Notes under the pieces: generated by a model
What the model saw: the letters and a program-made list of their open reading frames with translations, nothing else
Databases searched by the model: none
Told to the model about the DNA's origin: nothing
Translations under genes and position numbers: made by a program
In this document: in pieces, positions 8,771-23,115 of the stretch
Position numbering within the stretch: the stretch's first letter is position 1
Layout of the letters: every line of letters starts with the position of its first letter
Source of the DNA: Gammaproteobacteria bacterium
Lineage (GTDB): Bacteria > Pseudomonadota > Gammaproteobacteria > JAJDYQ01
NCBI GenBank assembly: GCA_036985915.1
Contig: BTQO01000002.1
Location: 3,541-27,540 of the forward strand
Reading direction: 5' to 3'
Length of the DNA: 24,000 nt

Positions 8771-9409
8771 TCAGGACTGCTGAAAAGCCACACCGGTACC
8801 ACCAAGCGCACAATAACCACCGGGTGGTTTAGCAAGATACTGCTGATGATAGTCCTCCGCATAATAAAACTTAGGCGCATCGATAATCTCTGTTGTGATC
8901 GAAGACATGCCCGCTGCATTCAACAGCGCCTGATACGTGTTCCTGGAGTCCAGTGCAGCCTGCATCTGCTCCTTTGAATACACGTAGATACCTGAACGGT
9001 ATTGGGTGCCAACATCATTACCCTGGCGCATTCCCTGGGTTGGATCATGCGCCTCCCAGAAGACCCTTAATAGTCTATCGAAAGAGACTGCCGCTGGATC
9101 GTAAATTACCAGAACAACCTCGTTGTGCCCTGTTTGACCGCTGCACACATCCTGGTAGGTTGGATTTTTTGTATAACCCGCCGCATAACCAACAGCCGTA
9201 CTGTATACACCTTCAGTTTCCCAGAACTTCCGTTCTGCACCCCAAAAGCAGCCTAGTCCGAACATCGCAAGTTTCATATGTTCAGGAAACGGCGGTTTTA
9301 TCGGGTTGCCGTTGACAGTGTGACGGTTACCCACCTGCATGGCTTCGGCACGCCCAGGTAAGGCCTCATCTTCGCTCGGCATCAAACTCTTTTTATTTGG
9401 CATAAACAC
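8771..9409 (-). CDS. msrA: peptide-methionine (S)-S-oxide reductase MsrA (cytoplasmic type)
   Basis: Colinear with E. coli MsrA: [19 protein letters not shown].., catalytic [13 protein letters not shown], and no signal peptide. Confidence 0.95.
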
Positions 9410-9522: not shown

Positions 9523-10401
9523 TTAATCTCCGAGATATTTATGCACGAAATCCGCTGTCCGCTGCATTGCATCCTTCGCTGCCAGGTCATCGGCAAACGT
9601 TCGTACATGCGGCGGCCTGAAATCAAACCCTCGCCCAACACCTGGGTAGACGATCACCTTTGCATCTCTTTTTTTCTCTTTCAATGCATCAATCCCGGCC
9701 AGTATCGGACGATAACGCTGGTACTGCTCGTGATCGCCAAGGAATACCAACACCGGCACATTCAGATCATTGATTTCAGGCGCGTAACGGTAGACTTGCA
9801 TAGGTTCACCTGCATTGGGATCCTGCCAATGGGGGTAGTACGAAACATAACAGGCGACCTTGTCCTTTTGACGACCCTTGGTGACCAGCGCCTTGAGTGT
9901 CATGTAGCCGCCGCGCGTGTGAGACACGGTACATATTTTTTTGCTCTTCACATCAGGCAGGGTCAACAGATAGTCAATACCCGCCGCTACATCATCTTCA
10001 ACTTCATAACGATGCTCGATTGGAAACTTCTCTATAAAATTAGCCGTCCAAATATCCGGCGCCAAAACGACAAAACCGCGCGCAGCCAGGCGGATGGGAT
10101 GCAGCCTGGTAAGATCATCAATCCCTCGCCGGCCATGCTGAAATAAAATGCCGGGATATGCGCCCTTGGCCTTCGGCCGGATTAACAAGGCTGGCACTTC
10201 AATATCCCTGCTCTTGTAGGATACTTCCTTGATAACAACTTCGTAATTCGCCGGCTGCCTGAGCTTCCCTTTTTCCCACCAGCCGTCGTCCCACCACCAC
10301 TTTTCCTTATCTTGCGGGTATTCCATTTTTACCCACGGCTCATGCATCGCCCATGCGGTGTTCGCCATCAGGTACATCAACAGCACAAGCAGTAATCTCA
10401 T
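9523..10401 (-). CDS. secreted dienelactone hydrolase-family alpha/beta hydrolase
   Basis: Signal peptide MRLLLVLLMYLMANTAWA. DLH-like core: PGILFQHGRRG, a nucleophile-elbow-like CTVSHTRGGYM, and a C-terminal His region. Confidence 0.7.
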   Translation of the reverse strand: MRLLLVLLMYLMANTAWAMHEPWVKMEYPQDKEKWWWDDGWWEKGKLRQPANYEVVIKEVSYKSRDIEVPALLIRPKAKGAYPGILFQHGRRGIDDLTRLHPIRLAARGFVVLAPDIWTANFIEKFPIEHRYEVEDDVAAGIDYLLTLPDVKSKKICTVSHTRGGYMTLKALVTKGRQKDKVACYVSYYPHWQDPNAGEPMQVYRYAPEINDLNVPVLVFLGDHEQYQRYRPILAGIDALKEKKRDAKVIVYPGVGRGFDFRPPHVRTFADDLAAKDAMQRTADFVHKYLGD

Positions 10402-10557: not shown

Positions 10558-11199
10558 ATGACCATGATAATTCGTATGCTACCCCTGACATTTACAGGAT
10601 TCCTCAGCATTTTTCTGGTTTCAGCGGCAATATCTGCCCATGCCGATGATCATGCCGTAAACGCGCCTGCCAAGACCGCGAAGGCCACATTTGCAGGCGG
10701 GTGTTTCTGGTGCATGGAGCCACCCTATGATGCCATTGATGGCGTTCTTTCGGTCACCTCCGGTTATACCGGTGGAAAGCTTGCCAACCCCACTTACGGT
10801 CAGGTCTCACGTGGCGGGACCGGTCATGCTGAGGCAGTCCAGATCATCTACGACCCGGCACGTGTAAGTTACGACGAATTACTGAGGGTTTTCTGGCGAA
10901 ATATCGACCCGCTTGCCAAAGACTATCAGTTCTGCGATTACGGCGATCAATACCGGGCTGCGATTTTCTACCACGATGATGAACAGTTTCGGCTTGCCAT
11001 GAACGCCAAGCAAGCCCTGGTGGATAGCAAACGCTTTGACAAACCGATTGTCACTGAAATAGTGCGAGCAGGTCCTTTCTACCCGGCTGAGGATTACCAC
11101 CAGGAGTATTACAAAAAGAACCCGGTGCGCTACAAGTATTACCGCTGGCGCTGTGGGCGTGACCAGCGACTGGAAGAGTTATGGGGAAAGCCTCAATGA
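10558..11199 (+). CDS. msrA: MsrA paralog with N-terminal signal peptide (predicted periplasmic methionine sulfoxide reductase A)
   Basis: Signal peptide ..FLVSAAISAHA followed by an MsrA core with FAGGCFWCMEPPYD, GYTGG..NPTY..V..G.TGHAE and AEDYHQEY. Confidence 0.85.
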   Translation: MTMIIRMLPLTFTGFLSIFLVSAAISAHADDHAVNAPAKTAKATFAGGCFWCMEPPYDAIDGVLSVTSGYTGGKLANPTYGQVSRGGTGHAEAVQIIYDPARVSYDELLRVFWRNIDPLAKDYQFCDYGDQYRAAIFYHDDEQFRLAMNAKQALVDSKRFDKPIVTEIVRAGPFYPAEDYHQEYYKKNPVRYKYYRWRCGRDQRLEELWGKPQ

Positions 11200-11327
11200 T
11201 AAAAAATCCTGGTCAATTCCACAGATAAATTGAGTAACAACCATACCGGGGACGCATTCGAGCCTTGTCAGGCATAAAAACATGTGTTATAGCAGATTGG
11301 GGTTGATTCGCAAGAAAAATCAAGTGG

Positions 11328-12098
11328 TTGCGGCATGCCGCGGGGGAATCCGGACAAGTGCTGGAAAACTATCAGGATTATATCGAAGCAGCCGGCAAGA
11401 CCAGGTCCTTGAAGGACATTCATGCGCTCTGTTCCGATATGTGTAACCACTATGGCTTCGATCACTTTGTATACGGAGCAAGATTTCCTACTTCTTTACT
11501 CAATCCAAAGATTGTCTTCATCAGTGGCTACCCAACACAATGGTGGGAGCGCTATAAATCAGAAAATTACATGAGGATTGACCCGCTTGTGGCGCATTGT
11601 GAGCACAACATCACGCCTATTCGCTGGGATTGCATACAAAGGGATTTGCTTGAATCACCAAACATAAGCCGCTTTATGTCAGAGGCAGTTGATAGCGGAT
11701 TACGCAACGGTTTGAGTATACCTGTTCATACAAGCAATGGTGAGTTTGCCATGCTCAATTTTTCCACCTCAGATAGCCCTGAGAAATCTTCTGATCATAT
11801 TATTCAAGGTACACCCGAAGTGTACTTGCTTACCAACTACATCCACGAAGCTGTAACCCGCATCGTAGATGCTCTGGGAGAAGATAAGCCTCTCGTTAAA
11901 CTCACAAACCGGGAACGAGAGTGCCTTTTGTGGGCTGCTGATGGTAAAACGGCCTGGGAAACAGCCCAGATACTCAAAGTCTCCGAAAGAACTATTGTCT
12001 GGCATATCCAGAATGCCCAATCAAAGCTCAAAACCGTCAGCAGACAACAAACGGTCGCAAGAGCCATCTCAAGAGGCATCATCTCTCCGCAACTTTAA
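11328..12098 (+). CDS. luxR: LuxR-family acyl-homoserine-lactone-responsive transcriptional regulator
   Basis: The autoinducer-binding domain has the conserved W/Y/D-P/W/G positions (TQWWERY, RIDPLV, PIRWD, GLSIPV). C-terminal LuxR HTH: LTNRERECLLWAADGKTAWETAQILKVSERTIVWHIQNA. The true start may be the GTG at 11358, preceded by GGGGGA, rather than the TTG at 11328. Confidence 0.92.
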   Translation: MRHAAGESGQVLENYQDYIEAAGKTRSLKDIHALCSDMCNHYGFDHFVYGARFPTSLLNPKIVFISGYPTQWWERYKSENYMRIDPLVAHCEHNITPIRWDCIQRDLLESPNISRFMSEAVDSGLRNGLSIPVHTSNGEFAMLNFSTSDSPEKSSDHIIQGTPEVYLLTNYIHEAVTRIVDALGEDKPLVKLTNRERECLLWAADGKTAWETAQILKVSERTIVWHIQNAQSKLKTVSRQQTVARAISRGIISPQL

Positions 12099-12167
12099 AG
12101 GCTGGCCTTAAACGCATGCTCTTGCGTATAAGCAATACTTCTTTTGTTTTCAATATGTTACGCATGC

Positions 12168-12187
12168 ACCTGTAAGATCTTACAGTT
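12168..12187. promoter_or_regulatory. lux box (LuxR-type operator) upstream of the first luxI
   Basis: ACCTGTAAGATCTTACAGTT contains a perfect 16-bp palindrome, CTGTAAGATCTTACAG (12170-12185). Compare the Vibrio fischeri lux box ACCTGTAGGATCGTACAGGT. The centre lies ~70 bp upstream of the luxI ATG at 12248. Confidence 0.85.
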
Positions 12188-12247
12188 ACGCCGCGTCAGT
12201 ACTCTGTCGTTTACTTATCCGGGGTGGTTTTTCCGGAGGTGTCGACG

Positions 12248-12895
12248 ATGTACAAAATATTCTGGGGCAAGGCAAACACTCTAAATCAGGCGATACTCGC
12301 TTCATTATTTTCATTCCGCTATCAGGTTTTCCGGCAACGGCTTGGATGGGATGTAGTTTGCAATGAGGGCCAGGAAACAGACCGATTCGATACTATAAAC
12401 CCGGCCTATATTGTTGCGTTAAACAAGAAGGGTGTTGCCGAGGGTTGTTTCCGGCTACTGCCAACAACAGGTGATTACATGCTAAAGCATGTTTTTCCTG
12501 AAATGATTGATGGCGATGACGCACCATGCGATGAAACTATTTGGGAGCTAAGCCGATTCGCTGTTATGCCTCGAAAAAAGAGTGCAGCAGTAAAAGGCGG
12601 CTGCTGCGCGGTAACGTTCCAGATTATCCGCAGTGTCTATGACTTCGCGGTAGCACATGGTATTAACCGGTATGTGTTTGTTACCAGCGTTGCCGTTGAA
12701 CGGCTATTGCGGCGACTTAAATTGCCAGTATCACGCTTTGGTAGCGGACATACATATCGACTCGGAAAAGTGCGATCTGTGGTGTTATGGGTTGATATTA
12801 ACGATCAATTCCGCCAAGCAATGTACGGCGACGCAGTGCCTGTAACACCGGATATAAATCTACTCAGCGGCTCCGGGTATGAACAGGCAGCCTGA
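12248..12895 (+). CDS. luxI: acyl-homoserine-lactone synthase, LuxI family (copy 1, canonical motifs)
   Basis: FRYQVFRQRLGWDV, GQETDRFD, FRLLPTTGDYML and IWELSRFAV are all LuxI-family signature blocks. GGAGG at 12235-12239 precedes the ATG at 12248. Confidence 0.92.
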   Translation: MYKIFWGKANTLNQAILASLFSFRYQVFRQRLGWDVVCNEGQETDRFDTINPAYIVALNKKGVAEGCFRLLPTTGDYMLKHVFPEMIDGDDAPCDETIWELSRFAVMPRKKSAAVKGGCCAVTFQIIRSVYDFAVAHGINRYVFVTSVAVERLLRRLKLPVSRFGSGHTYRLGKVRSVVLWVDINDQFRQAMYGDAVPVTPDINLLSGSGYEQAA

Positions 12896-12905
12896 TCAGA
12901 GGCAA

Positions 12906-13550
12906 ATGCTTATGCCAATCATAACAGCCAAAATAGGAGATCCTGCCCTTACCCCCGTACTTCTCGCCGATATGTTCAGCTTCCGTGCCCGTGTCTTTTC
13001 ACAGCAACTGGGCTGGGAGCGCGAATCGGACCAGGGGCGGGATAACCTTGATGACCTCAACCCGGTGTACGTCATATCACTTGATCACGGCCGGGTGAAT
13101 GGCTGCCTGCGGCTGCTGCCAACGGACGGCTGGTATATGCTCGGTGACGAATTTCCTGAACTGCTATGGGGAGAGCAGCCACCGCGCAGTCCGGTGGTCT
13201 GGGAAGTCAGCCGTTTTGCGGCGCAGGAAATAAATGCACCATGCGAATCATCAGTACAGATAGCGTCTCCTGACATCGCTTGGGAATTGATTTTATCCGC
13301 CATGCGCTTTGCGCTGAATGCCGGGGTCGAAACTTTCGTTGCAGTTGCCAGCACTGACGTTGAATCCTATCTGAAGTCAGTCGGCCTGCGAATGCGTCGC
13401 TTTGGTCTAGGCCATCAGGTGATGGTTTCCGGCTGCGCGATTACTGCACTAAAAATAAATGTTACCGCATCCCTGGCAAGGATAGACCTGGGAACACTCT
13501 CAGGAAACCAACACCATGCCGCAGCCACTCAACAACGCTCTGGAGATTAA
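12906..13550 (+). CDS. luxI: acyl-homoserine-lactone synthase, LuxI family (copy 2, divergent)
   Basis: FRARVFSQQLGWE, LRLLPTDGWYML and VWEVSRFAA are conserved, but the acidic block reads QGRDNLDD. Candidate starts are ATG 12879 (overlaps copy 1), 12906 (AGAGG upstream) and 12912. Confidence 0.85.
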   Translation: MLMPIITAKIGDPALTPVLLADMFSFRARVFSQQLGWERESDQGRDNLDDLNPVYVISLDHGRVNGCLRLLPTDGWYMLGDEFPELLWGEQPPRSPVVWEVSRFAAQEINAPCESSVQIASPDIAWELILSAMRFALNAGVETFVAVASTDVESYLKSVGLRMRRFGLGHQVMVSGCAITALKINVTASLARIDLGTLSGNQHHAAATQQRSGD

Positions 13551-13552
13551 CA

Positions 13553-14005
13553 TTGCTAAGAATACTCATGGTTGGTGCCTCGTCACGGACGGCATCTTTT
13601 TTTAATACCATTTGCGGCAAACGGGGACTGGCAGTGACAATACAGGATGACCCCGAAAGGGCATCCGAATTGCTGCGCAGCAATCCTGATACCTATGACT
13701 GGGTCATCGTAGAGGGCGATGATACCGCTGAACACACCGGTATTATTTCCAATACCCTGTCATCTAAAGATTCCAGGATACCACTGGCACTGCTGTATCA
13801 CCCGGTACAGTCATTTGGTGCGGTAGACGATATGTGGGCGGGCTCGCGACCACAGCAAAGATCACCTCAATATCATTCCCCTGAATTGCTTTCGCAACCA
13901 GAAGAACCCTGCCTGGTAACAAAACAACAGCACACTGTTACTGACTATGACCCGGTGGTGCTTGAATACCACGCCCCCTGTAAACCGAGGGCCAGGAAAA
14001 ACTAA
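13553..14005 (+). CDS. hypothetical 150-aa protein with a degenerate receiver(REC)-like N-terminal half and a P/Q-rich tail
   Basis: A TTG start lies 2 nt after the luxI-2 stop, with GGAGA 6 nt upstream. RILMVG..(helix)..LAVTIQ..(helix)..YDWVIVEGDD..IPLALLY follows the beta-alpha pattern of CheY-like receivers but lacks the N-terminal acidic pair. Family assignment is by eye only. Confidence 0.5.
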   Translation: MLRILMVGASSRTASFFNTICGKRGLAVTIQDDPERASELLRSNPDTYDWVIVEGDDTAEHTGIISNTLSSKDSRIPLALLYHPVQSFGAVDDMWAGSRPQQRSPQYHSPELLSQPEEPCLVTKQQHTVTDYDPVVLEYHAPCKPRARKN

Positions 14006-14032
14006 GGAAACTCTGATTTATTCTGAGTTTCC
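14006..14032. other. 8-bp perfect inverted repeat directly after the orphan ORF's stop
   Basis: GGAAACTC (14006-14013), an 11-nt spacer, then GAGTTTCC (14025-14032). No U-tract follows, so it could be a weak terminator or a protein-binding site. Confidence 0.3.
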
Positions 14033-14053
14033 GCGGTACAAGGACGATGTACA

Positions 14054-14127
14054 CGACTCCATGGCAAGGATTGTTCCCGACAATCCTTTTGCATTTCCTC
14101 CATCCATGGAGGTAGATGGAGGAGATA
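14054..14127 (+). repeat. 74-bp direct repeat, copy 1
   Basis: CGACTCCATGGCAAGGATTGTTCCCGACAATCCTTTTGCATTTCCTCCATCCATGGAGGTAGATGGAGGAGATA. It is 73/74 identical to 14179-14252, a 125-bp period. Confidence 0.95.
14066..14090 (+). terminator. terminator-like hairpin inside repeat copy 1 (an identical copy lies at 14191-14215)
   Basis: AAGGATTGT-TCCCG-ACAATCCTT is a 9-bp perfect stem with a 5-nt loop, running into TTTT on the + strand only. Confidence 0.35.
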
Positions 14128-14178
14128 GAGCCGCGTCGGGAACGGCGGCCGAAGGATGTACAAGTGTCGCGAGAGGCG

Positions 14179-14252
14179 CGACTCCTTGGCAAGGATTGTT
14201 CCCGACAATCCTTTTGCATTTCCTCCATCCATGGAGGTAGATGGAGGAGATA
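14179..14252 (+). repeat. 74-bp direct repeat, copy 2
   Basis: Same sequence as 14054-14127 apart from one A-to-T difference (14061 vs 14186). Confidence 0.95.
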
Positions 14253-14430
14253 CGAGCCCATGGATGGGCGAAGGTAGAACAATGCAGGAGCAATTGTCGA
14301 GAATGAAGCACGACTGCATGGACGCAGAAGGTAGAGCAACGCATGGAGCAGTTGCCGAGGAGCCAGAGCCGAGGATGCCGGGAGCGGCTGTACCGCCAAA
14401 ATCGATCCTCGCAGGGAATTGATTTTGTGA

Positions 14431-14458
14431 GGAAAACGGAAACTTGTTTTCGTTTTCC
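14431..14458 (+). terminator. terminal 13-bp hairpin closing the GGA-rich region
   Basis: GGAAAACGGAAAC-TT-GTTTTCGTTTTCC has one mismatch. No clean U-tract follows, so terminator function is uncertain. Confidence 0.3.
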
Positions 14459-14593
14459 GTGCGCTGATAATTCTTAGATGGAATTATTCTTAAGCTTCCC
14501 TAAAACTAGGGTCTGCGTTCTTTTTGTGTAATCGCCTTTCTTTTTATATGCTGATCAAATTCGCCCTGCGAAAAACCATCAGCCTGGTCAAAA

Positions 14594-16318
14594 CTACATG
14601 AGCGGTCTTGGTTCTTCGATGCCATAACCTTGAGCATAATTGACACCTATCTCCTTCAATTTCTTTAAGATAGCATCATCTTCAACAAATTCGGCAATGG
14701 TTTGTTTGCCCATCACATGGCCTATTTCGTTAATGGATTTAACCATTGCATAATCGATAGGGTCATTCACGATATTCTTAACAAAAGTGCCATCTATTTT
14801 AAGATAATCGACTGGCAGATTTTTTAGATAGGCAAATGAGGAAAATCCACTGCCAAAATCGTCAAGAGCAAATTTACAGCCATCTTCCTTCAGGGTATGT
14901 ATAAAATGTTTTGCATCGTTCAGGCTGGTAATTGCCGCTGTTTCTGTAATTTCAAAGCAGATCTTCTCTGGCGGTATTGAACTATTATTCAGCGCATGGA
15001 CTATAACACTTAAAATATGATCGTCACTAAGGGTCTGTCCAGAAATATTTATCGAACAAATCTGAAGATTCTCGAGTTTCTCCGGATTGGCATCCAGCCA
15101 GGAAAAGGCCCTTTCGACCACCCACTGATCTAACTTGCTTGATAGGTTAAAACGCTCTGCCGCAGGAAGGAAATTTCCTGGTAGCACCATATTTCCTTCC
15201 TCATCCTCCATCCTGACGAGCAGCTCATAATGTTCTCTTTGTTGTCCGTTTATTATCGGCATTATCTTTTGGTAATAAAGATGAAAGCGATCTTCCCTGA
15301 TTGCCTTGGTTATTGAACTCACCAATTTCATTTCTTTATTTTGCTGCGCCAGTTCACTATCGGATTGATCAAACATCCGTATACGATTTCGACCGGCATC
15401 TTTCGCAGCGAACAAGGCTGCATCAGCCATATTCATCGCGCTGGATATTTTCTTCACGGCGGTATTTACGGGTGCGACCCCGATACTGGAGCTTATATCA
15501 AATGACTTATCTTCCCAGGTAAATACATGAGCCCGGATCGCATCCCTGAGACGCATAATGACCTTGTCAGCCTGTAGCATTGGACAGATCATCAGCAATA
15601 TTCCAAACTCATCACCATCAATTCTTGCGACTATGTCGTTCTGTTTTAGCAAACCCCTTAAGAGACTGCCTACCTGGCGCAATAGTTCGTCACCTGCAAC
15701 GTATCCACATGTATTATTAATGACCTTGAATTGATCGAGGTCGATGTAGCATAACGTGTGCTCAATATCATTTAAGCTGGTTATATCCATGCTTTGCTGT
15801 AGACGATGTTCGAACTCCCGCCGATTGACAAGCCCAGTTAAAGGATCGTGCGTTTCCTGATATGACAGCTTTTCCGAGAGTGTATGTGCAACTGTTGTGT
15901 CTTCGCAGACCATTAAAAGCCTTTCCTCATTGCCGGCTTCCCGAACTATTCGAACAGTATTCCTGTACCACATGCCATCACCCGACTTACGCACCATCTT
16001 TGACTGGCGCACATGAACAATATCTGGTTGCTGAAGGAAGGCGGTAATCCAGGTCTGTAAAGCGTCCGTTAAACCCTCCGGATATACCACTGATATCGAC
16101 TGACCTAATAATTCATCAAGAGTGTAGCCCAGTTGTTCGGCGCCGAATCGGTTAACCGATAGGATTATTCCGTCCGCATTCAGTGTAAAAAAGATTGCTG
16201 GCGTATCATCGTAAAGCTCACGGTTGCGAACTTCAAATGCGCGCATATTTGGATCCTTTACGTTGTTCTTATTCATGCGGTTCCCTTTTTCTGCTTCCTG
16301 GCTTTTAATTGTGCTCAT
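14594..16318 (-). CDS. PAS-GGDEF-EAL c-di-GMP signalling protein (degenerate DGDEF motif, apparently intact EAL)
   Basis: PAS: FFTLNADGIILSVNRFGAEQLGY. GGDEF domain with RIDGDEFGILL. EAL domain with YELLVR, SINISG, CFEITE, ALDDFGSGFSS, LKIDG, IAEFVE and QGY. Confidence 0.92.
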   Translation of the reverse strand: MSTIKSQEAEKGNRMNKNNVKDPNMRAFEVRNRELYDDTPAIFFTLNADGIILSVNRFGAEQLGYTLDELLGQSISVVYPEGLTDALQTWITAFLQQPDIVHVRQSKMVRKSGDGMWYRNTVRIVREAGNEERLLMVCEDTTVAHTLSEKLSYQETHDPLTGLVNRREFEHRLQQSMDITSLNDIEHTLCYIDLDQFKVINNTCGYVAGDELLRQVGSLLRGLLKQNDIVARIDGDEFGILLMICPMLQADKVIMRLRDAIRAHVFTWEDKSFDISSSIGVAPVNTAVKKISSAMNMADAALFAAKDAGRNRIRMFDQSDSELAQQNKEMKLVSSITKAIREDRFHLYYQKIMPIINGQQREHYELLVRMEDEEGNMVLPGNFLPAAERFNLSSKLDQWVVERAFSWLDANPEKLENLQICSINISGQTLSDDHILSVIVHALNNSSIPPEKICFEITETAAITSLNDAKHFIHTLKEDGCKFALDDFGSGFSSFAYLKNLPVDYLKIDGTFVKNIVNDPIDYAMVKSINEIGHVMGKQTIAEFVEDDAILKKLKEIGVNYAQGYGIEEPRPLM

Positions 16319-16538
16319 AAATTATGCTGATACTCCAAGGTTCGCACTTATGTGCTATATAAAGACACGCAACCGGCATGGCCAGGACATGCGCCGGCTA
16401 CAATTCTATGGGCTATAACTAACCCTTAAGCAGCGTGGCAAACTGTGTGCATTTACACCACGCGCCTTCATCAATGCGATTCTTTATATTCTTGTCTGGA
16501 TGCCCGTCGATCATTATCGAATATAGCCATAACCGTCA

Positions 16539-16558
16539 AGCTGTAACTTCTTACAGGT
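16539..16558. promoter_or_regulatory. second lux-box-like palindrome in the divergent GGDEF-EAL / sugar dehydrogenase intergenic region
   Basis: AGCTGTAACTTCTTACAGGT. Its 16-bp core CTGTAACTTCTTACAG (16541-16556) matches the luxI lux-box core at 14/16 positions and the V. fischeri lux box at 15/20. It lies ~150 bp from the GTG at 16698 and ~230 bp from the start at 16318. Confidence 0.55.
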
Positions 16559-16697
16559 ATGGCATACCTAAATGCCGGGTAGCTAATGTATGAAGGCATT
16601 GGAATATGCAAGAATGCGCACAGATATCAGGCACATAGCATAGATATAGGTATTAGGGCCTTGCGGGGCGAAACGACCGGATAATGAGGTTAATCCC

Positions 16698-17936
16698 GTG
16701 CTAACCATAAACAACACGTGCTTAGGCAAATACCTGCATCTGATCGTGCTCACGGGGTTGTTCTCAGGCTATGTCTACTCTCCTGCCTTTGCCGGCACCG
16801 GTACTATTAAGGCCATCACACAACAATTATCAACACCGGCAGGCCGGGTAGAAATATCCATACCTAAGGGCTATACGCTCGATTTACTCTCAAGCAACCT
16901 GCGCTCACCACGCTTGATAAACTTCGCTGAGAATGGCGATTTGTTCATTGGCTCCCGTTCCGGGGCGGTCTACAGGTTGCAACCTCCTTATACTGAGGCA
17001 GATATTCTCGTCAGTCTCAATGACTATCCCCACAGCGTTGCCTTACGGCAGGGGGAAATGTTTATCGCACAAACACATGGCCTGTATCGCGCGCCTTATT
17101 TGCCGGGGCAGGACAGAATCAAACAACAGGATTTGCAGCTGGTCGCCAAACTACCGGGTGGACCGGGACACAACAGCCGCACCGTGCGTATCGGACCTGA
17201 CGGCAAAGTTTATGTGAGCCTTGGGATTGCCGGGAATTGCAGTGACCAGTACCTCGACCCATCCTATCCATTTGAAGACCGGCGTGGCGGTGTGCTGGTG
17301 CTGGATGAATCCCAACTGCGTCCGGTGTTCAGAACATTTGCATCGGGCTTAAGGAATCCAGTCGGTTTTGACTGGCAACCGGATACAGACATTATGTATG
17401 CCAGTAATAATGGCCCCGACCATCTGGGGTATGAACAACCACCGGAGTATTTCAGCAAGCTGATACCCCAATCTTTTCATGGCATGCCCTGGTTTTGGTT
17501 CGATGGCACAAAGATGGTGCGCGATCACTGTGTTGGCAGCACACCACCCAGAATAGACGCTAACCCACCGGTAGCCACGTTCCCTGCCCGCAACGCGCCC
17601 ATGGCCGTTGCATTTGTACCGAATGGCGCCATGGATGAACGGTTCAGGGGCGATGCCATCGTGGCGCTGCATGGCTCATGGGCCACACAACCCACAGGCG
17701 GTTTTAGTGGCGAGCCAAAAAGCCGCCGTGAACCAAAATTGGTGGTGGTGCGGTTTGAAGATGGCCAGGCAGTTCGTGTTGATGACTTGCTGACCGGATT
17801 TCAATCATCTAACGGAGACCGATGGGCCCGCCCGGTGGGTGTTGCCATAGGTCCGGATGGTGCGTTGTATTTCACCAGTGATTCTGGCCTTGAAGGCCTC
17901 TTCAGGCTCAGGCGAAATGGGCTAAATTCTTTATAA
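16698..17936 (+). CDS. PQQ-dependent sugar (glucose/sorbosone) dehydrogenase-family beta-propeller, secreted
   Basis: Hydrophobic N-terminal signal. Propeller motifs: GLRNPVGFDW, YASNNGPDHLGYEQPPEY, and RPVGVAIGPDGALYFTSD. GTG start preceded by GAGG. Confidence 0.8.
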   Translation: MLTINNTCLGKYLHLIVLTGLFSGYVYSPAFAGTGTIKAITQQLSTPAGRVEISIPKGYTLDLLSSNLRSPRLINFAENGDLFIGSRSGAVYRLQPPYTEADILVSLNDYPHSVALRQGEMFIAQTHGLYRAPYLPGQDRIKQQDLQLVAKLPGGPGHNSRTVRIGPDGKVYVSLGIAGNCSDQYLDPSYPFEDRRGGVLVLDESQLRPVFRTFASGLRNPVGFDWQPDTDIMYASNNGPDHLGYEQPPEYFSKLIPQSFHGMPWFWFDGTKMVRDHCVGSTPPRIDANPPVATFPARNAPMAVAFVPNGAMDERFRGDAIVALHGSWATQPTGGFSGEPKSRREPKLVVVRFEDGQAVRVDDLLTGFQSSNGDRWARPVGVAIGPDGALYFTSDSGLEGLFRLRRNGLNSL

Positions 17937-21117: not shown

Positions 21118-22224
21118 CTAACCTAGCCCGCCAAAAGCATATAAATAAACACCAATCCCGATCAACAATGCTGCAGAAAGTAAACCTATCAAGATAAGCA
21201 ACTTCTTCGGTAGCTTTTGTGATCGTTTGCGTAACTTGATTTTGCGACTTTGTTTTTTTGCACCCTTGGCAGGGGCGGGCCGCCTGTCTGTGGTCGTGGT
21301 TCCGCCAAAATTCGGTACCGGATCAAGTCCCTGGAGCATACGAGACCAGTCATTGGCATTTTGCGGTCTATCTACCTCTCTGAAACACAAGGCATGATCG
21401 ATGGCTCGTAAAAAGCGCGTTGAAAACTGGCGGCCCCCGACCTTAGTCGCCGGTTCATAGGGGTCCTGGGTTTGGTTCAAAAAGGAATGGCTTCTCACCA
21501 ATGCATCCACCGGAGGCCGGCCAGTGAGCGCCAGGTATAGCGTGGCACCAAATGCGTAGATATCACTCCACGGCCCTTGCGACCTGGCATCATCATTATA
21601 TTGTTCAAACGGTGCGAACCCCGGTGTTACCAGGCTGGTCATCGTGCTGGCAGGTCCGGTTTTAGCCACGGCCTGTCTTGCTGAACCAAAGTCCAGCAAC
21701 ACCGGGCTGCCATCTGTTCTTACGAATATATTGGCGGGCTTTATATCCCGATGCACAAAACCTGCCTCGTGTACATGCGCAAGCCCGTCACAGATTGGTA
21801 CACAAATCTGCAACAGGCTTTGTTCATCATGGAAAAGACCCTTGCGCATGAGGTCCTGCATATCCTTGCCATCGGCATATTCCATCACCATGTACACCGT
21901 ATTATTGTCCTGAAAAACATTGTGGACCTTGATGACGTTTGGATGCCGGAACTCTTCCAGGGTTTTGCCTTCAGACAGGAACCGTTCCATGCCCCAGTCG
22001 TAAAGACCCTTCTGCTCATCTGTTAACGGGCGCACCGTGTCTTTTTCATCGCGGTACGCCAGATCAGATGGCAGATATTCCTTGATGGCGACCGTTTGAT
22101 TGAAGTCGGTGTCATGGGCCTTGTAGGTGATGCCAAACCCACCATGCCCAATCACGGATTCAATCTGGTAACCGTGGAGCATCTTTCCCTTTCTCAAGGC
22201 ATTTCGATGCTTTTGCTGACTCAC
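21118..22224 (-). CDS. Hanks-type serine/threonine protein kinase with a C-terminal membrane anchor
   Basis: GHGGFGITYKA..VAIKEY (Gly-loop and Lys), HRDIKPANIF, DFGSAR and TPGFAPFEQ. A K/R-rich linker is followed by a TM helix, LLILIGLLSAALLIGIGVYLYAF. GTG start with AAGGGGG upstream. An ATG at 22182 is an alternative start. Confidence 0.9.
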   Translation of the reverse strand: MSQQKHRNALRKGKMLHGYQIESVIGHGGFGITYKAHDTDFNQTVAIKEYLPSDLAYRDEKDTVRPLTDEQKGLYDWGMERFLSEGKTLEEFRHPNVIKVHNVFQDNNTVYMVMEYADGKDMQDLMRKGLFHDEQSLLQICVPICDGLAHVHEAGFVHRDIKPANIFVRTDGSPVLLDFGSARQAVAKTGPASTMTSLVTPGFAPFEQYNDDARSQGPWSDIYAFGATLYLALTGRPPVDALVRSHSFLNQTQDPYEPATKVGGRQFSTRFLRAIDHALCFREVDRPQNANDWSRMLQGLDPVPNFGGTTTTDRRPAPAKGAKKQSRKIKLRKRSQKLPKKLLILIGLLSAALLIGIGVYLYAFGGLG

Positions 22225-22671: not shown

Positions 22672-23115
22672 ATGGTCACCAAGAAGCACCTTAATATCCA
22701 ACGCATTGATACTGAAACCAATAGCACTCACTGCTGGGTCGTAGTTGTGCAACGGCGCAGCAAGATCTATAGAAAAATGTTCTCTGATGGTGTGTATGGC
22801 GGTAAGCGCAAAGCATTGCAAAACGCAATAATATGGAGAGATAAGATTATTGCTAAATATCCTCCGCTAAGTAAAAAACAATACATCACTATAAAACGCA
22901 AGAATAATAAATCTGGAGTGCCGGGTGTGTGCCGTTTCCAGAAACACGGTCGTTGGCATTGGGTAACCAGTTGGGCTACTGGCGTAGGGAAAAGTAAACA
23001 ACTAGCATTCTCTTCCGATGAATATGGTGAAGAAAAAGCGTTTAAGAAAGCCTGCGCTGCTCGGCGGAAGGCAGTAAAACAAGTAAGCGGTGTTTTTCTC
23101 CCGAATAGTGGTTGA
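22672..23115 (+). CDS. AP2/ERF-like DNA-binding domain protein (two AP2-like half-repeats)
   Basis: SGVPGVCRF..GRWHWVTSW..KQLAFSSDEYGEEKAFKKACAARRKAV has the bacterial AP2-domain pattern. A weaker N-terminal copy reads HCWVVVV..KMFSDGVYGGKRKALQNAIIWR. Confidence 0.7.
   Translation: MVTKKHLNIQRIDTETNSTHCWVVVVQRRSKIYRKMFSDGVYGGKRKALQNAIIWRDKIIAKYPPLSKKQYITIKRKNNKSGVPGVCRFQKHGRWHWVTSWATGVGKSKQLAFSSDEYGEEKAFKKACAARRKAVKQVSGVFLPNSG

Follow-up and report, generated by a model that had tools for sequence, protein, structure and literature searches.

We analyze a 24,000-nt stretch of DNA from a Gammaproteobacteria bacterium (assembly GCA_036985915.1, contig BTQO01000002.1, positions 3,541 to 27,540; hereafter, the whole stretch is “the window”), in which a luxR gene, a lux box and two adjacent, strongly diverged luxI-family genes (luxI1 and luxI2) lie on one strand and are followed by a small gene that we call X. 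In the usual model of quorum sensing by acyl-homoserine lactones (AHLs), each locus has a single receptor, a single synthase and a single signal. Here, the same autoinduction loop appears to include a second synthase-like gene, which has been retained with recognisable changes at its active site and docking surface. The features at the locus are as follows.

11358-12098, plus strand: luxR, GTG start, 246 amino acids, with the Pfam domains Autoind_bind and GerE.
12168-12187, no strand: predicted lux box, ACCTGTAAGATCTTACAGTT, containing a perfect 16-bp palindrome at 12170-12185.
12248-12895, plus strand: luxI1, 215 amino acids, Pfam PF00765, with a GGAGG ribosome-binding site (RBS) at 12235-12239.
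12896-12911, plus strand: spacer of 16 nt between luxI1 and luxI2, with the RBS AGAGG at 12898-12902.
12912-13550, plus strand: luxI2, 212 amino acids, a divergent LuxI paralog of a Glu44-less subtype, Pfam PF00765.
13568-14005, plus strand: X, 145 amino acids, a predicted degenerate receiver-like protein, with an alternative TTG start at 13553.

An earlier sequence-only reading of this DNA had described the order luxR, lux box, luxI1, luxI2 on one strand, with which the coordinates and the Pfam matches agree. It had also described the two synthase genes as abutting or overlapping, citing a stop at 12895 (the codon 12893-12895) and possible ATG starts at 12879, 12906 and 12912, all of which are present. 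The ATG at 12906 is an ACG in a 97%-identical relative (L001), the ATG at 12912 is conserved and has the AGAGG 9 nt ahead of it, and LuxI2 comes out at 212 amino acids in gene calling; we therefore place the start of luxI2 at 12912, so that the two genes abut with a 16-nt spacer carrying an RBS and do not overlap. For luxR, the longest open reading frame (ORF) begins at a TTG at 11328, and the gene is called as 246 amino acids in both L001 and L002. The arrangement is not an assembly artefact, as independent assemblies from other samples share its junctions: that of L002 contains the entire locus with the same junctions as the window, that of L001 contains luxI1 plus the first 35 codons of luxI2, and that of L085 contains the last 74 codons of luxI2 plus X.

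The regulator and its operator are of the familiar kind. The luxR product matches Autoind_bind (PF03472, E-value 1.7e-39) and GerE (PF00196, 1.5e-15), its nearest solved relatives are QscR, LasR and RhlR, and its alignment with LasR and QscR shows that the Tyr/Trp/Tyr/Asp-Pro/Trp positions of the ligand pocket are kept. It is a predicted AHL-responsive regulator of the LuxR family. Its ratio of non-synonymous to synonymous substitution rates (dN/dS) is 0.11 against L001. The palindrome of the lux box lies 78 nt from the luxI1 ATG and is unchanged in L001, where the flanks vary. Of 85 loci, 70 have a CTG[T/C]-N8-[A/G]CAG box 5' of luxI, in most cases 73-91 nt away, Aliivibrio fischeri included. 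For the box at 12168-12187, the chance expectation in the window is 0.04. We conclude that 12168-12187 is the predicted lux-box operator of LuxR.

Downstream of this box, luxI1, luxI2 and X look like one transcription unit. The spacers are 16 and 17 nt (the latter between luxI2 and X), the genes have RBSs, and overlaps occur in relatives; we found no second lux box between luxI1, luxI2 and X and no convincing terminator in the operon. Hits resembling terminators, within luxI1 and where X begins, were rejected, as they are weak and shuffled sequence yields at least as many, and an Rfam scan of 11000-17000 gave no matches. Given the single box, the tight spacing and the lack of a further operator, LuxR with its signal most likely drives luxI1, luxI2 and X together. 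The earlier proposal of a luxR-luxI-luxI (R-I-I) operon under one operator thus stands as to the single box, the RBS spacer and the missing terminator, with the correction that the unit is luxI1-luxI2-X and that gene X had been missed. The claim of a single lux box likewise holds at the operon, where there is no other, but may not for the window as a whole: 4.3 kb downstream, at 16541-16556, there is a second site that resembles a lux box.

The sequence-only reading had regarded tandem luxI genes as unusual, and in the wider clade they are. We collected 80 species-representative loci of the LuxI1 clade (Thiohalobacter, Thiogranum, Sulfuricaulis, Desulfuromonadales, Arhodomonas and others), among which a single one, L067, has a tandem luxI; such frequency estimates depend on which loci the searches returned. 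In a narrow LuxI1 subgroup, however, the arrangement thought to be rare is the rule. Locus L086 carries a lux box, luxI1, luxI2 (with an ATGA overlap) and X, and L003 (GCA_037388465.1) carries luxR, luxI1 and then a gene in which a LuxI2-type domain is fused to X. The LuxI1 proteins of LuxI2-bearing loci share the motifs VFVTSV and SVVLW, from which we predicted a second Autoind_synth gene at L087/L088, L089 and L090; the prediction was confirmed in all three, each with a 4-nt overlap between the two synthase genes, and a short X follows the second synthase there wherever the contig continues and the gene is called. Altogether, seven LuxI1 proteins carry the motifs and six were looked up (the window's 97% relative counted), all six with a second synthase gene directly downstream. 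At least six diverged lineages, all of uncultured bacteria and all known from metagenomes, therefore retain the luxI1-luxI2(-X) operon, which argues that luxI2 has a real job.

The junction of the pair is tight throughout. It is an ATGA overlap in L086, L087, L089 and L090. In L003, the 152-nt spacer derives from a 144-nt tandem duplication (10592-10880, copies 90% and 74% identical), and the ancestral junction there consists of the stop codon, AGAGGG, 18 nt and the ATG. A quartet test rejected recent copying of each LuxI2 from its own neighbour in 2000 of 2000 bootstraps, and with it a recent local duplication of luxI2. A recent foreign origin was also rejected, since GC content (54%; 53% at third codon positions) is within the range of the window and codon usage is ordinary. 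Together with a BLASTP identity of 33% between LuxI1 and LuxI2 (206 amino acids, E-value 3e-37), which matches the earlier estimate by eye of about a third of positions, the host-like composition and the quartet test bear out the view that this is an old paralogy and not a recent duplication.

The trees are neighbour-joining trees, and the distances behind them are saturated. Five LuxI2-bearing loci have LuxI1s that make up a clade with 87% bootstrap, or 39% with the window included; the LuxR proteins of the window and L086 are sisters (74%). For the same genome pairs, LuxI1 identity is 66-86% and LuxI2 identity 41-61%, indicating that the pair co-diverges, with LuxI2 diverging more. As to the placement of both synthases that the sequence-only reading had called for, a LuxI2 core (L086, L087, L090 and P0215) is recovered with 99% bootstrap, but the LuxI2s of the window and L003 join it weakly, at ~20%. 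As a first neighbour-joining tree was unresolved and a rare-shared-state test of the window and L003 LuxI2s did no better than noise, the orthology of the window's LuxI2 with this core rests on synteny, the shared residue signature described below and the ~20% bootstrap. From these comparisons, one old insertion or duplication likely created luxI1-luxI2-X, which has been inherited since, with the window as its most divergent known member.

LuxI1 itself is, by prediction, a canonical AHL synthase that uses an acylated acyl carrier protein (acyl-ACP). It scores 110.9 bits against Autoind_synth (PF00765, cut-off 24) and 131 bits against LasI, the most similar protein among solved structures. It has 573 relatives (best non-self identity 52-54%), and its dN/dS is 0.165. 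A passage in PMC6691176, citing Fuqua and Greenberg 2002, gives ten LuxI residues as conserved in all LuxI proteins, Glu44 included; LuxI1 has 10 of 10 (R25, F29, W35, E44, D46, D49, R70, F84, E101, R104), as well as S103 and a basic ACP-docking helix with a net charge of +6. As luxR, the spacing of the lux box and LuxI1 all match canonical circuits, positive feedback through LuxI1 is expected. Threonines T140 of EsaI and T142 of LasI hydrogen-bond the 3-oxo group (PMC8188788), and the corresponding residue is Phe in LuxI1 and Ala in LuxI2. Against NCBIfam, the hits of both synthases were all of TraI type and below threshold. Desulfuromonas soudanensis, a cultured organism with a member of the wider LuxI clade, showed AHL-like activity in a biosensor assay (PMC4914508).

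LuxI2 is clearly of the same family, with 87.5 bits against PF00765 (cut-off 24). The three sequence blocks that had been reported in both synthases are indeed present: FRxxVFxxxLGW (FRYQVFRQRLGW in LuxI1, FRARVFSQQLGW in LuxI2), RLLPT, and WExSRF (WELSRF and WEVSRF). An AlphaFold2 model from a 104-sequence alignment has a predicted local distance difference test (pLDDT) score of 86.9 and a predicted template modelling (pTM) score of 0.83. In Foldseek, the top matches are LasI (1ro5, E-value 3e-16, TM-score 0.76-0.82) and TofI (3p2h, 2e-15, 0.75-0.86), followed by the coenzyme A (CoA)-dependent synthases RpaI, BjaI and MesI (0.72-0.74). The model thus confidently gives LuxI2 the GNAT-like alpha/beta fold of solved AHL synthases.

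One explanation of luxI2 would be that it is a functionless, decaying duplicate, or an artefact of assembly or annotation. The protein is indeed isolated: among 1.84 billion representatives scanned exhaustively with HMMER, no relative exceeds ~48% identity (nearest ~40-48%), a word-indexed homologue search with LuxI2 found only itself, and a metagenome scan with LuxI2-derived patterns returned only L084, an unrelated single-luxI contig. Its last ~16 residues are variable and predicted to be disordered, and in L085, whose positions 1-213 are ~92% identical in nucleotides to 13323-13550 of the window, luxI2 stops five codons earlier. But every assembly that includes the ORF has it intact, and a second synthase gene stands at the same position in at least six lineages. 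Against L001 there are four synonymous and no non-synonymous changes in the N-terminal 35 codons; against L085, dN/dS is 0.39 in the last 74 codons, the replacements lying mostly in the C-terminal tail that AlphaFold leaves disordered. In total, 12 synonymous and 9 non-synonymous changes were counted, over ~110 codons from two partial relatives. Judged from these changes, luxI2 is under purifying selection, and with the confident fold prediction as well, we consider decay or artefact essentially excluded.

What sets LuxI2 apart from LuxI1 is a residue signature, which we tabulated in LuxI numbering for the full-length LuxI2-type proteins, namely those of the window, L086 and L003 together with P0215 (taken without genomic context). 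These proteins are only 24-61% identical to each other, yet all keep R25, F29, W35, D46, D49, R70, F84, E101, S103 and R104. None has Glu44, which is present in 127 of 130 and in 85 of 85 background sequences; in the window's LuxI2, which has nine of the ten invariant residues, it is removed by a two-residue deletion (QG--RD). Also lost throughout are Thr145 (Thr in 80 of 85 background sequences) and the basic residue at position 151 (Lys or Arg in 84 of 85). Glu150 and Arg162, invariant in the background (85 of 85), are missing from every tabulated LuxI2-type protein but the window's, which retains them along with Ala133 and Gly164. The window's protein has Ala in place of Thr143 and Thr145. 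In its ACP-docking helix, Arg151 is replaced by Ser at a position that is 96-99% Lys or Arg, there is a Ser at motif position 9 as well, and K154 and R162 are kept; the net charge is +2, vs +6 in LuxI1. More generally, the remaining basic residues of this helix are lost to a varying extent in LuxI2 proteins, and its net charge is +4 to +6 in LuxI1 proteins and +2, 0 and -3 in LuxI2 proteins. Lack of the basic residues that are otherwise conserved on this helix (LasI 146-173), which is proposed to dock ACP, is a hallmark of CoA-using synthases (PMC4234381).

Nine core residues kept over such deep divergence speak for an enzyme; what was lost at Glu44, at Thr145 and in the docking helix suggests that it no longer works like LuxI1. 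We propose the following mechanism. LuxR bound to the LuxI1 signal would activate the whole operon from the single box, so that LuxI2 and X would be made only after autoinduction. LuxI2 would still use S-adenosylmethionine (SAM) but would take its acyl group from a non-canonical donor (e.g., acyl-CoA) or would use a different chain, and would thus add to the output of the circuit a second acyl-homoserine lactone unlike that of LuxI1, with X as an accessory or regulatory partner of the synthases. We judge it about an even call that LuxI2 acts as a second synthase, uses another acyl donor or chain and so adds a second signal to the one circuit.

Several observations weigh against this proposal. 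In addition to the weak grouping of the window and L003 LuxI2s with the core and the ~110 codons behind the selection estimates, the loss of Glu44 may abolish catalysis or change it; this residue is listed among those critical for LuxI activity in a statement cited in bioRxiv 10.1101/749861. The loss of Glu150 and Arg162 from the other LuxI2-type proteins points in the same direction. As to the donor, LuxI2 shares with the CoA-dependent BjaI, RpaI and MesI the LuxI fold and, in part, the missing basic docking-helix residues, but it is not a member of their clade by sequence: it scores 93 bits against LasI and 82 bits against TofI, both ACP-type, and 32-38 bits against RpaI, BjaI and MesI, the CoA-type enzymes. 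A CoA donor for LuxI2 is thus suggested by analogy and not by clade membership. RpaI, the one CoA-type alignment that we inspected, keeps Glu44, unlike LuxI2.

The same losses would fit a LuxI2 that is an inactive pseudo-enzyme with a non-catalytic role, such as binding SAM or an acyl carrier, or serving as an adaptor between LuxI1 and X that tunes the LuxI1 signal, in which case a single signal would leave the cell. Every tabulated LuxI2-type protein lacks Glu44, and most lack Glu150 and Arg162 as well; erosion is seen at the ACP-docking surface, and divergence is stronger in LuxI2 than in LuxI1; the ATGA overlap with luxI1 found in four lineages would suit a fixed stoichiometry, and the LuxI2::X fusion of L003 is seen in three independent assemblies. 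However, nine catalytic or substrate-site residues that all LuxI2s keep at 24-61% identity are hard to explain without catalysis or SAM binding, the window's protein keeps Glu150, Arg162, Ala133 and Gly164, and its fold is predicted with confidence. We regard a pseudo-enzyme as rather doubtful.

Gene X brings a further component to the operon. Its 145-residue product ends in VVLEYHAPC and has no Pfam or NCBIfam match, and a word-indexed homologue search returned one 89% relative only. An iterative search, on the other hand, found X homologues directly after a single luxI (0-32 nt) in ~55 of the 80 species-representative loci, from which we take the ancestral module to be R-I-X, with luxI2 sitting between I and X. 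A profile of the X family matches response-regulator receiver domains in the PDB (E-value 7.7e-7 over ~85 residues), while individual members, the window's included, fall below the Pfam receiver thresholds. The phospho-acceptor position is Glu in the window and, among 56 family members, Glu in 20, Asp in 15, Asn in 9 and Gln in 5; the DD acidic pocket is replaced by Gly in 47 of 56. Members are ~115-150 amino acids long and have a conserved Cys and a C-terminal motif, C..E....G...L.C / FEYHAPC. We conclude that X belongs to a predicted family of degenerate receiver-like proteins outside Pfam and NCBIfam. Against L085, dN/dS of X is 0.39. An AlphaFold2 model from a two-sequence alignment had a pLDDT of 42.5 and was not used for fold search. 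A further receiver-like ORF of 145-155 amino acids follows X and precedes a CZB-GGDEF gene at L088 (2924-3391) and L090 (1807-2244), with no equivalent in the window.

In L003, the LuxI2-type domain and X form one 335-residue protein (10819-11826; P0129, also P0282 and P0283), which hints that LuxI-type proteins and X may work together physically. P0132, a LuxI with a C-terminal ILYEYH extension, was considered as a second such fusion and rejected, as it does not match the X profile. A broader possibility, which we advance tentatively, is that LuxI1, LuxI2 and X make up a previously unrecognised three-component module for signal production, in which LuxI2 would not be an ordinary, self-standing AHL synthase but would either make a non-canonical product from a non-ACP donor or control the output of LuxI1 post-translationally. 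A stricter version would have the three proteins act as a multi-component machine, with LuxI2 borrowing the ACP docking of LuxI1 or modifying its intermediate, and with one unusual signal that neither synthase makes alone. The three genes strictly co-occur, tightly coupled, in all lineages with enough contig, the L003 fusion joins two of the partners, and the losses of LuxI2 are complementary, its ACP helix being reduced and its core retained; PMC10470506 provides a precedent in Mesorhizobium japonicum, where three linked genes are needed for an unusual AHL. X, however, also stands beside a single luxI in the ~55 loci and is hence not specific to LuxI2. To our knowledge, the LuxI-family enzymes solved so far act alone, which further counts against such a machine, and we consider it quite unlikely.

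In its general build, the circuit is a member of the LuxR/LuxI/lux-box kind. It shares with A. fischeri luxR-luxI and Pseudomonas aeruginosa lasR-lasI a LuxR with Autoind_bind and GerE domains and a 20-bp inverted repeat at an A. fischeri-like distance, and differs from canonical circuits in that the operon has two extra genes, a divergent luxI and X; in contrast to the A. fischeri lux operon, no lux structural genes follow in the window. Genomes with several luxI genes (P. aeruginosa las/rhl, Burkholderia, Rhizobium) also have several synthases and the potential for several signals, but at separate R/I loci, whereas the synthases of the window are adjacent under one operator, are translationally coupled in relatives and are inherited as a unit, and the second is of a distinct, Glu44-less subtype. 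X recalls rsaL, rsaM, mupX and the third M. japonicum gene in being a small conserved gene linked to luxI; unlike rsaL, rsaM and mupX, it is downstream of luxI and not between R and I, and it has a receiver-like N-terminus and a FEYHAPC-like end. Accessory genes in luxR/luxI loci usually tune quorum sensing or alter the signal, according to PMC3386692, PMC10710839 and PMC10470506.

The closest arrangement outside the subgroup is that of L067 (Mariprofundaceae metagenome-assembled genome, 5104-6564), which has luxR, luxI and luxI on one strand, with one copy lacking Glu44. It differs in being an independent duplication (the copies are sisters with 84% bootstrap and are 49% identical), in having an identical lux box for each copy (CTGTCAGTTCTGACAG, 77 and 75 nt upstream), and in that its upstream copy is degenerate (F29I, E44G, R104Y). 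No X gene was found at L067.

The supposition that R-I-I had not already been characterised agrees with our full-text literature searches, which were incomplete for subscription journals and found no described arrangement of this kind. The accessible portions of a luxR/luxI topology survey (PMC3386692) and of a 2026 distribution preprint describe no I-I class and no such operon, respectively, and the accessible text of a Rhizobium survey (PMC13133039) makes only a mention of one LuxR associated with two LuxI. New in this material are a second synthase that is coupled to the first and belongs to a distinct subtype, the conservation of the two as a pair, and the X gene that accompanies them. Should a second signal come from LuxI2, a single circuit would send out two molecules whose relative timing is fixed; otherwise, LuxI2 would be a natural LuxI pseudo-enzyme or partner protein. 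Either outcome, with X beside luxI in ~55 species-level genomes, opens an unstudied part of AHL signal production.

Beyond the operon, the window contains one additional feature that may belong to the circuit.

16541-16556, no strand: second lux-box-like site, CTGTAACTTCTTACAG, two mismatches from the luxI1 box, with 0.04 expected by chance.

This site lies between a PAS-GGDEF-EAL gene (14594-16318, minus strand) and an ORF for a 412-residue beta-propeller protein (16698-17936). By its sequence it is a candidate extra LuxR target site, and both flanking genes may be LuxR targets. A GGDEF or GGDEF-EAL gene is found within a few kb of the operon in five lineages (window, 14594-16318; L086, 5263-7011; L087, 8636-9523; L089, 244-2094; L090, 2484-3374). 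These recurring neighbours and the second lux-box-like site suggest a link of the circuit to the control of cyclic di-GMP. The GGDEF-EAL proteins of the window and L086 are only 30% identical, so that their orthology is uncertain.

Between X and the GGDEF-EAL gene, the intergenic stretch 14054-14252 contains two 74-nt copies that are 99% identical, lie 125 nt apart and have a 10-bp hairpin (AAGGATTGTTCCCGACAATCCTT). As the stretch is absent from the related strain L085, the repeats look like a small mobile or repetitive extragenic palindrome (REP)-like insertion. Upstream of luxR, two paralogs of msrA (peptide methionine sulfoxide reductase), at 8771-9409 on the minus strand and 10558-11199 on the plus strand, flank a gene of the dienelactone hydrolase family (9523-10401, minus strand), and the order dienelactone hydrolase, msrA, luxR is conserved in L001 and L002. 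Toward the far end of the window, an AP2-domain ORF (22672-23115) beside a Ser/Thr protein kinase gene (21118-22224, minus strand) has the lowest GC content in the window, 43.5%, and also the codon usage that deviates most; this ORF may be foreign DNA.

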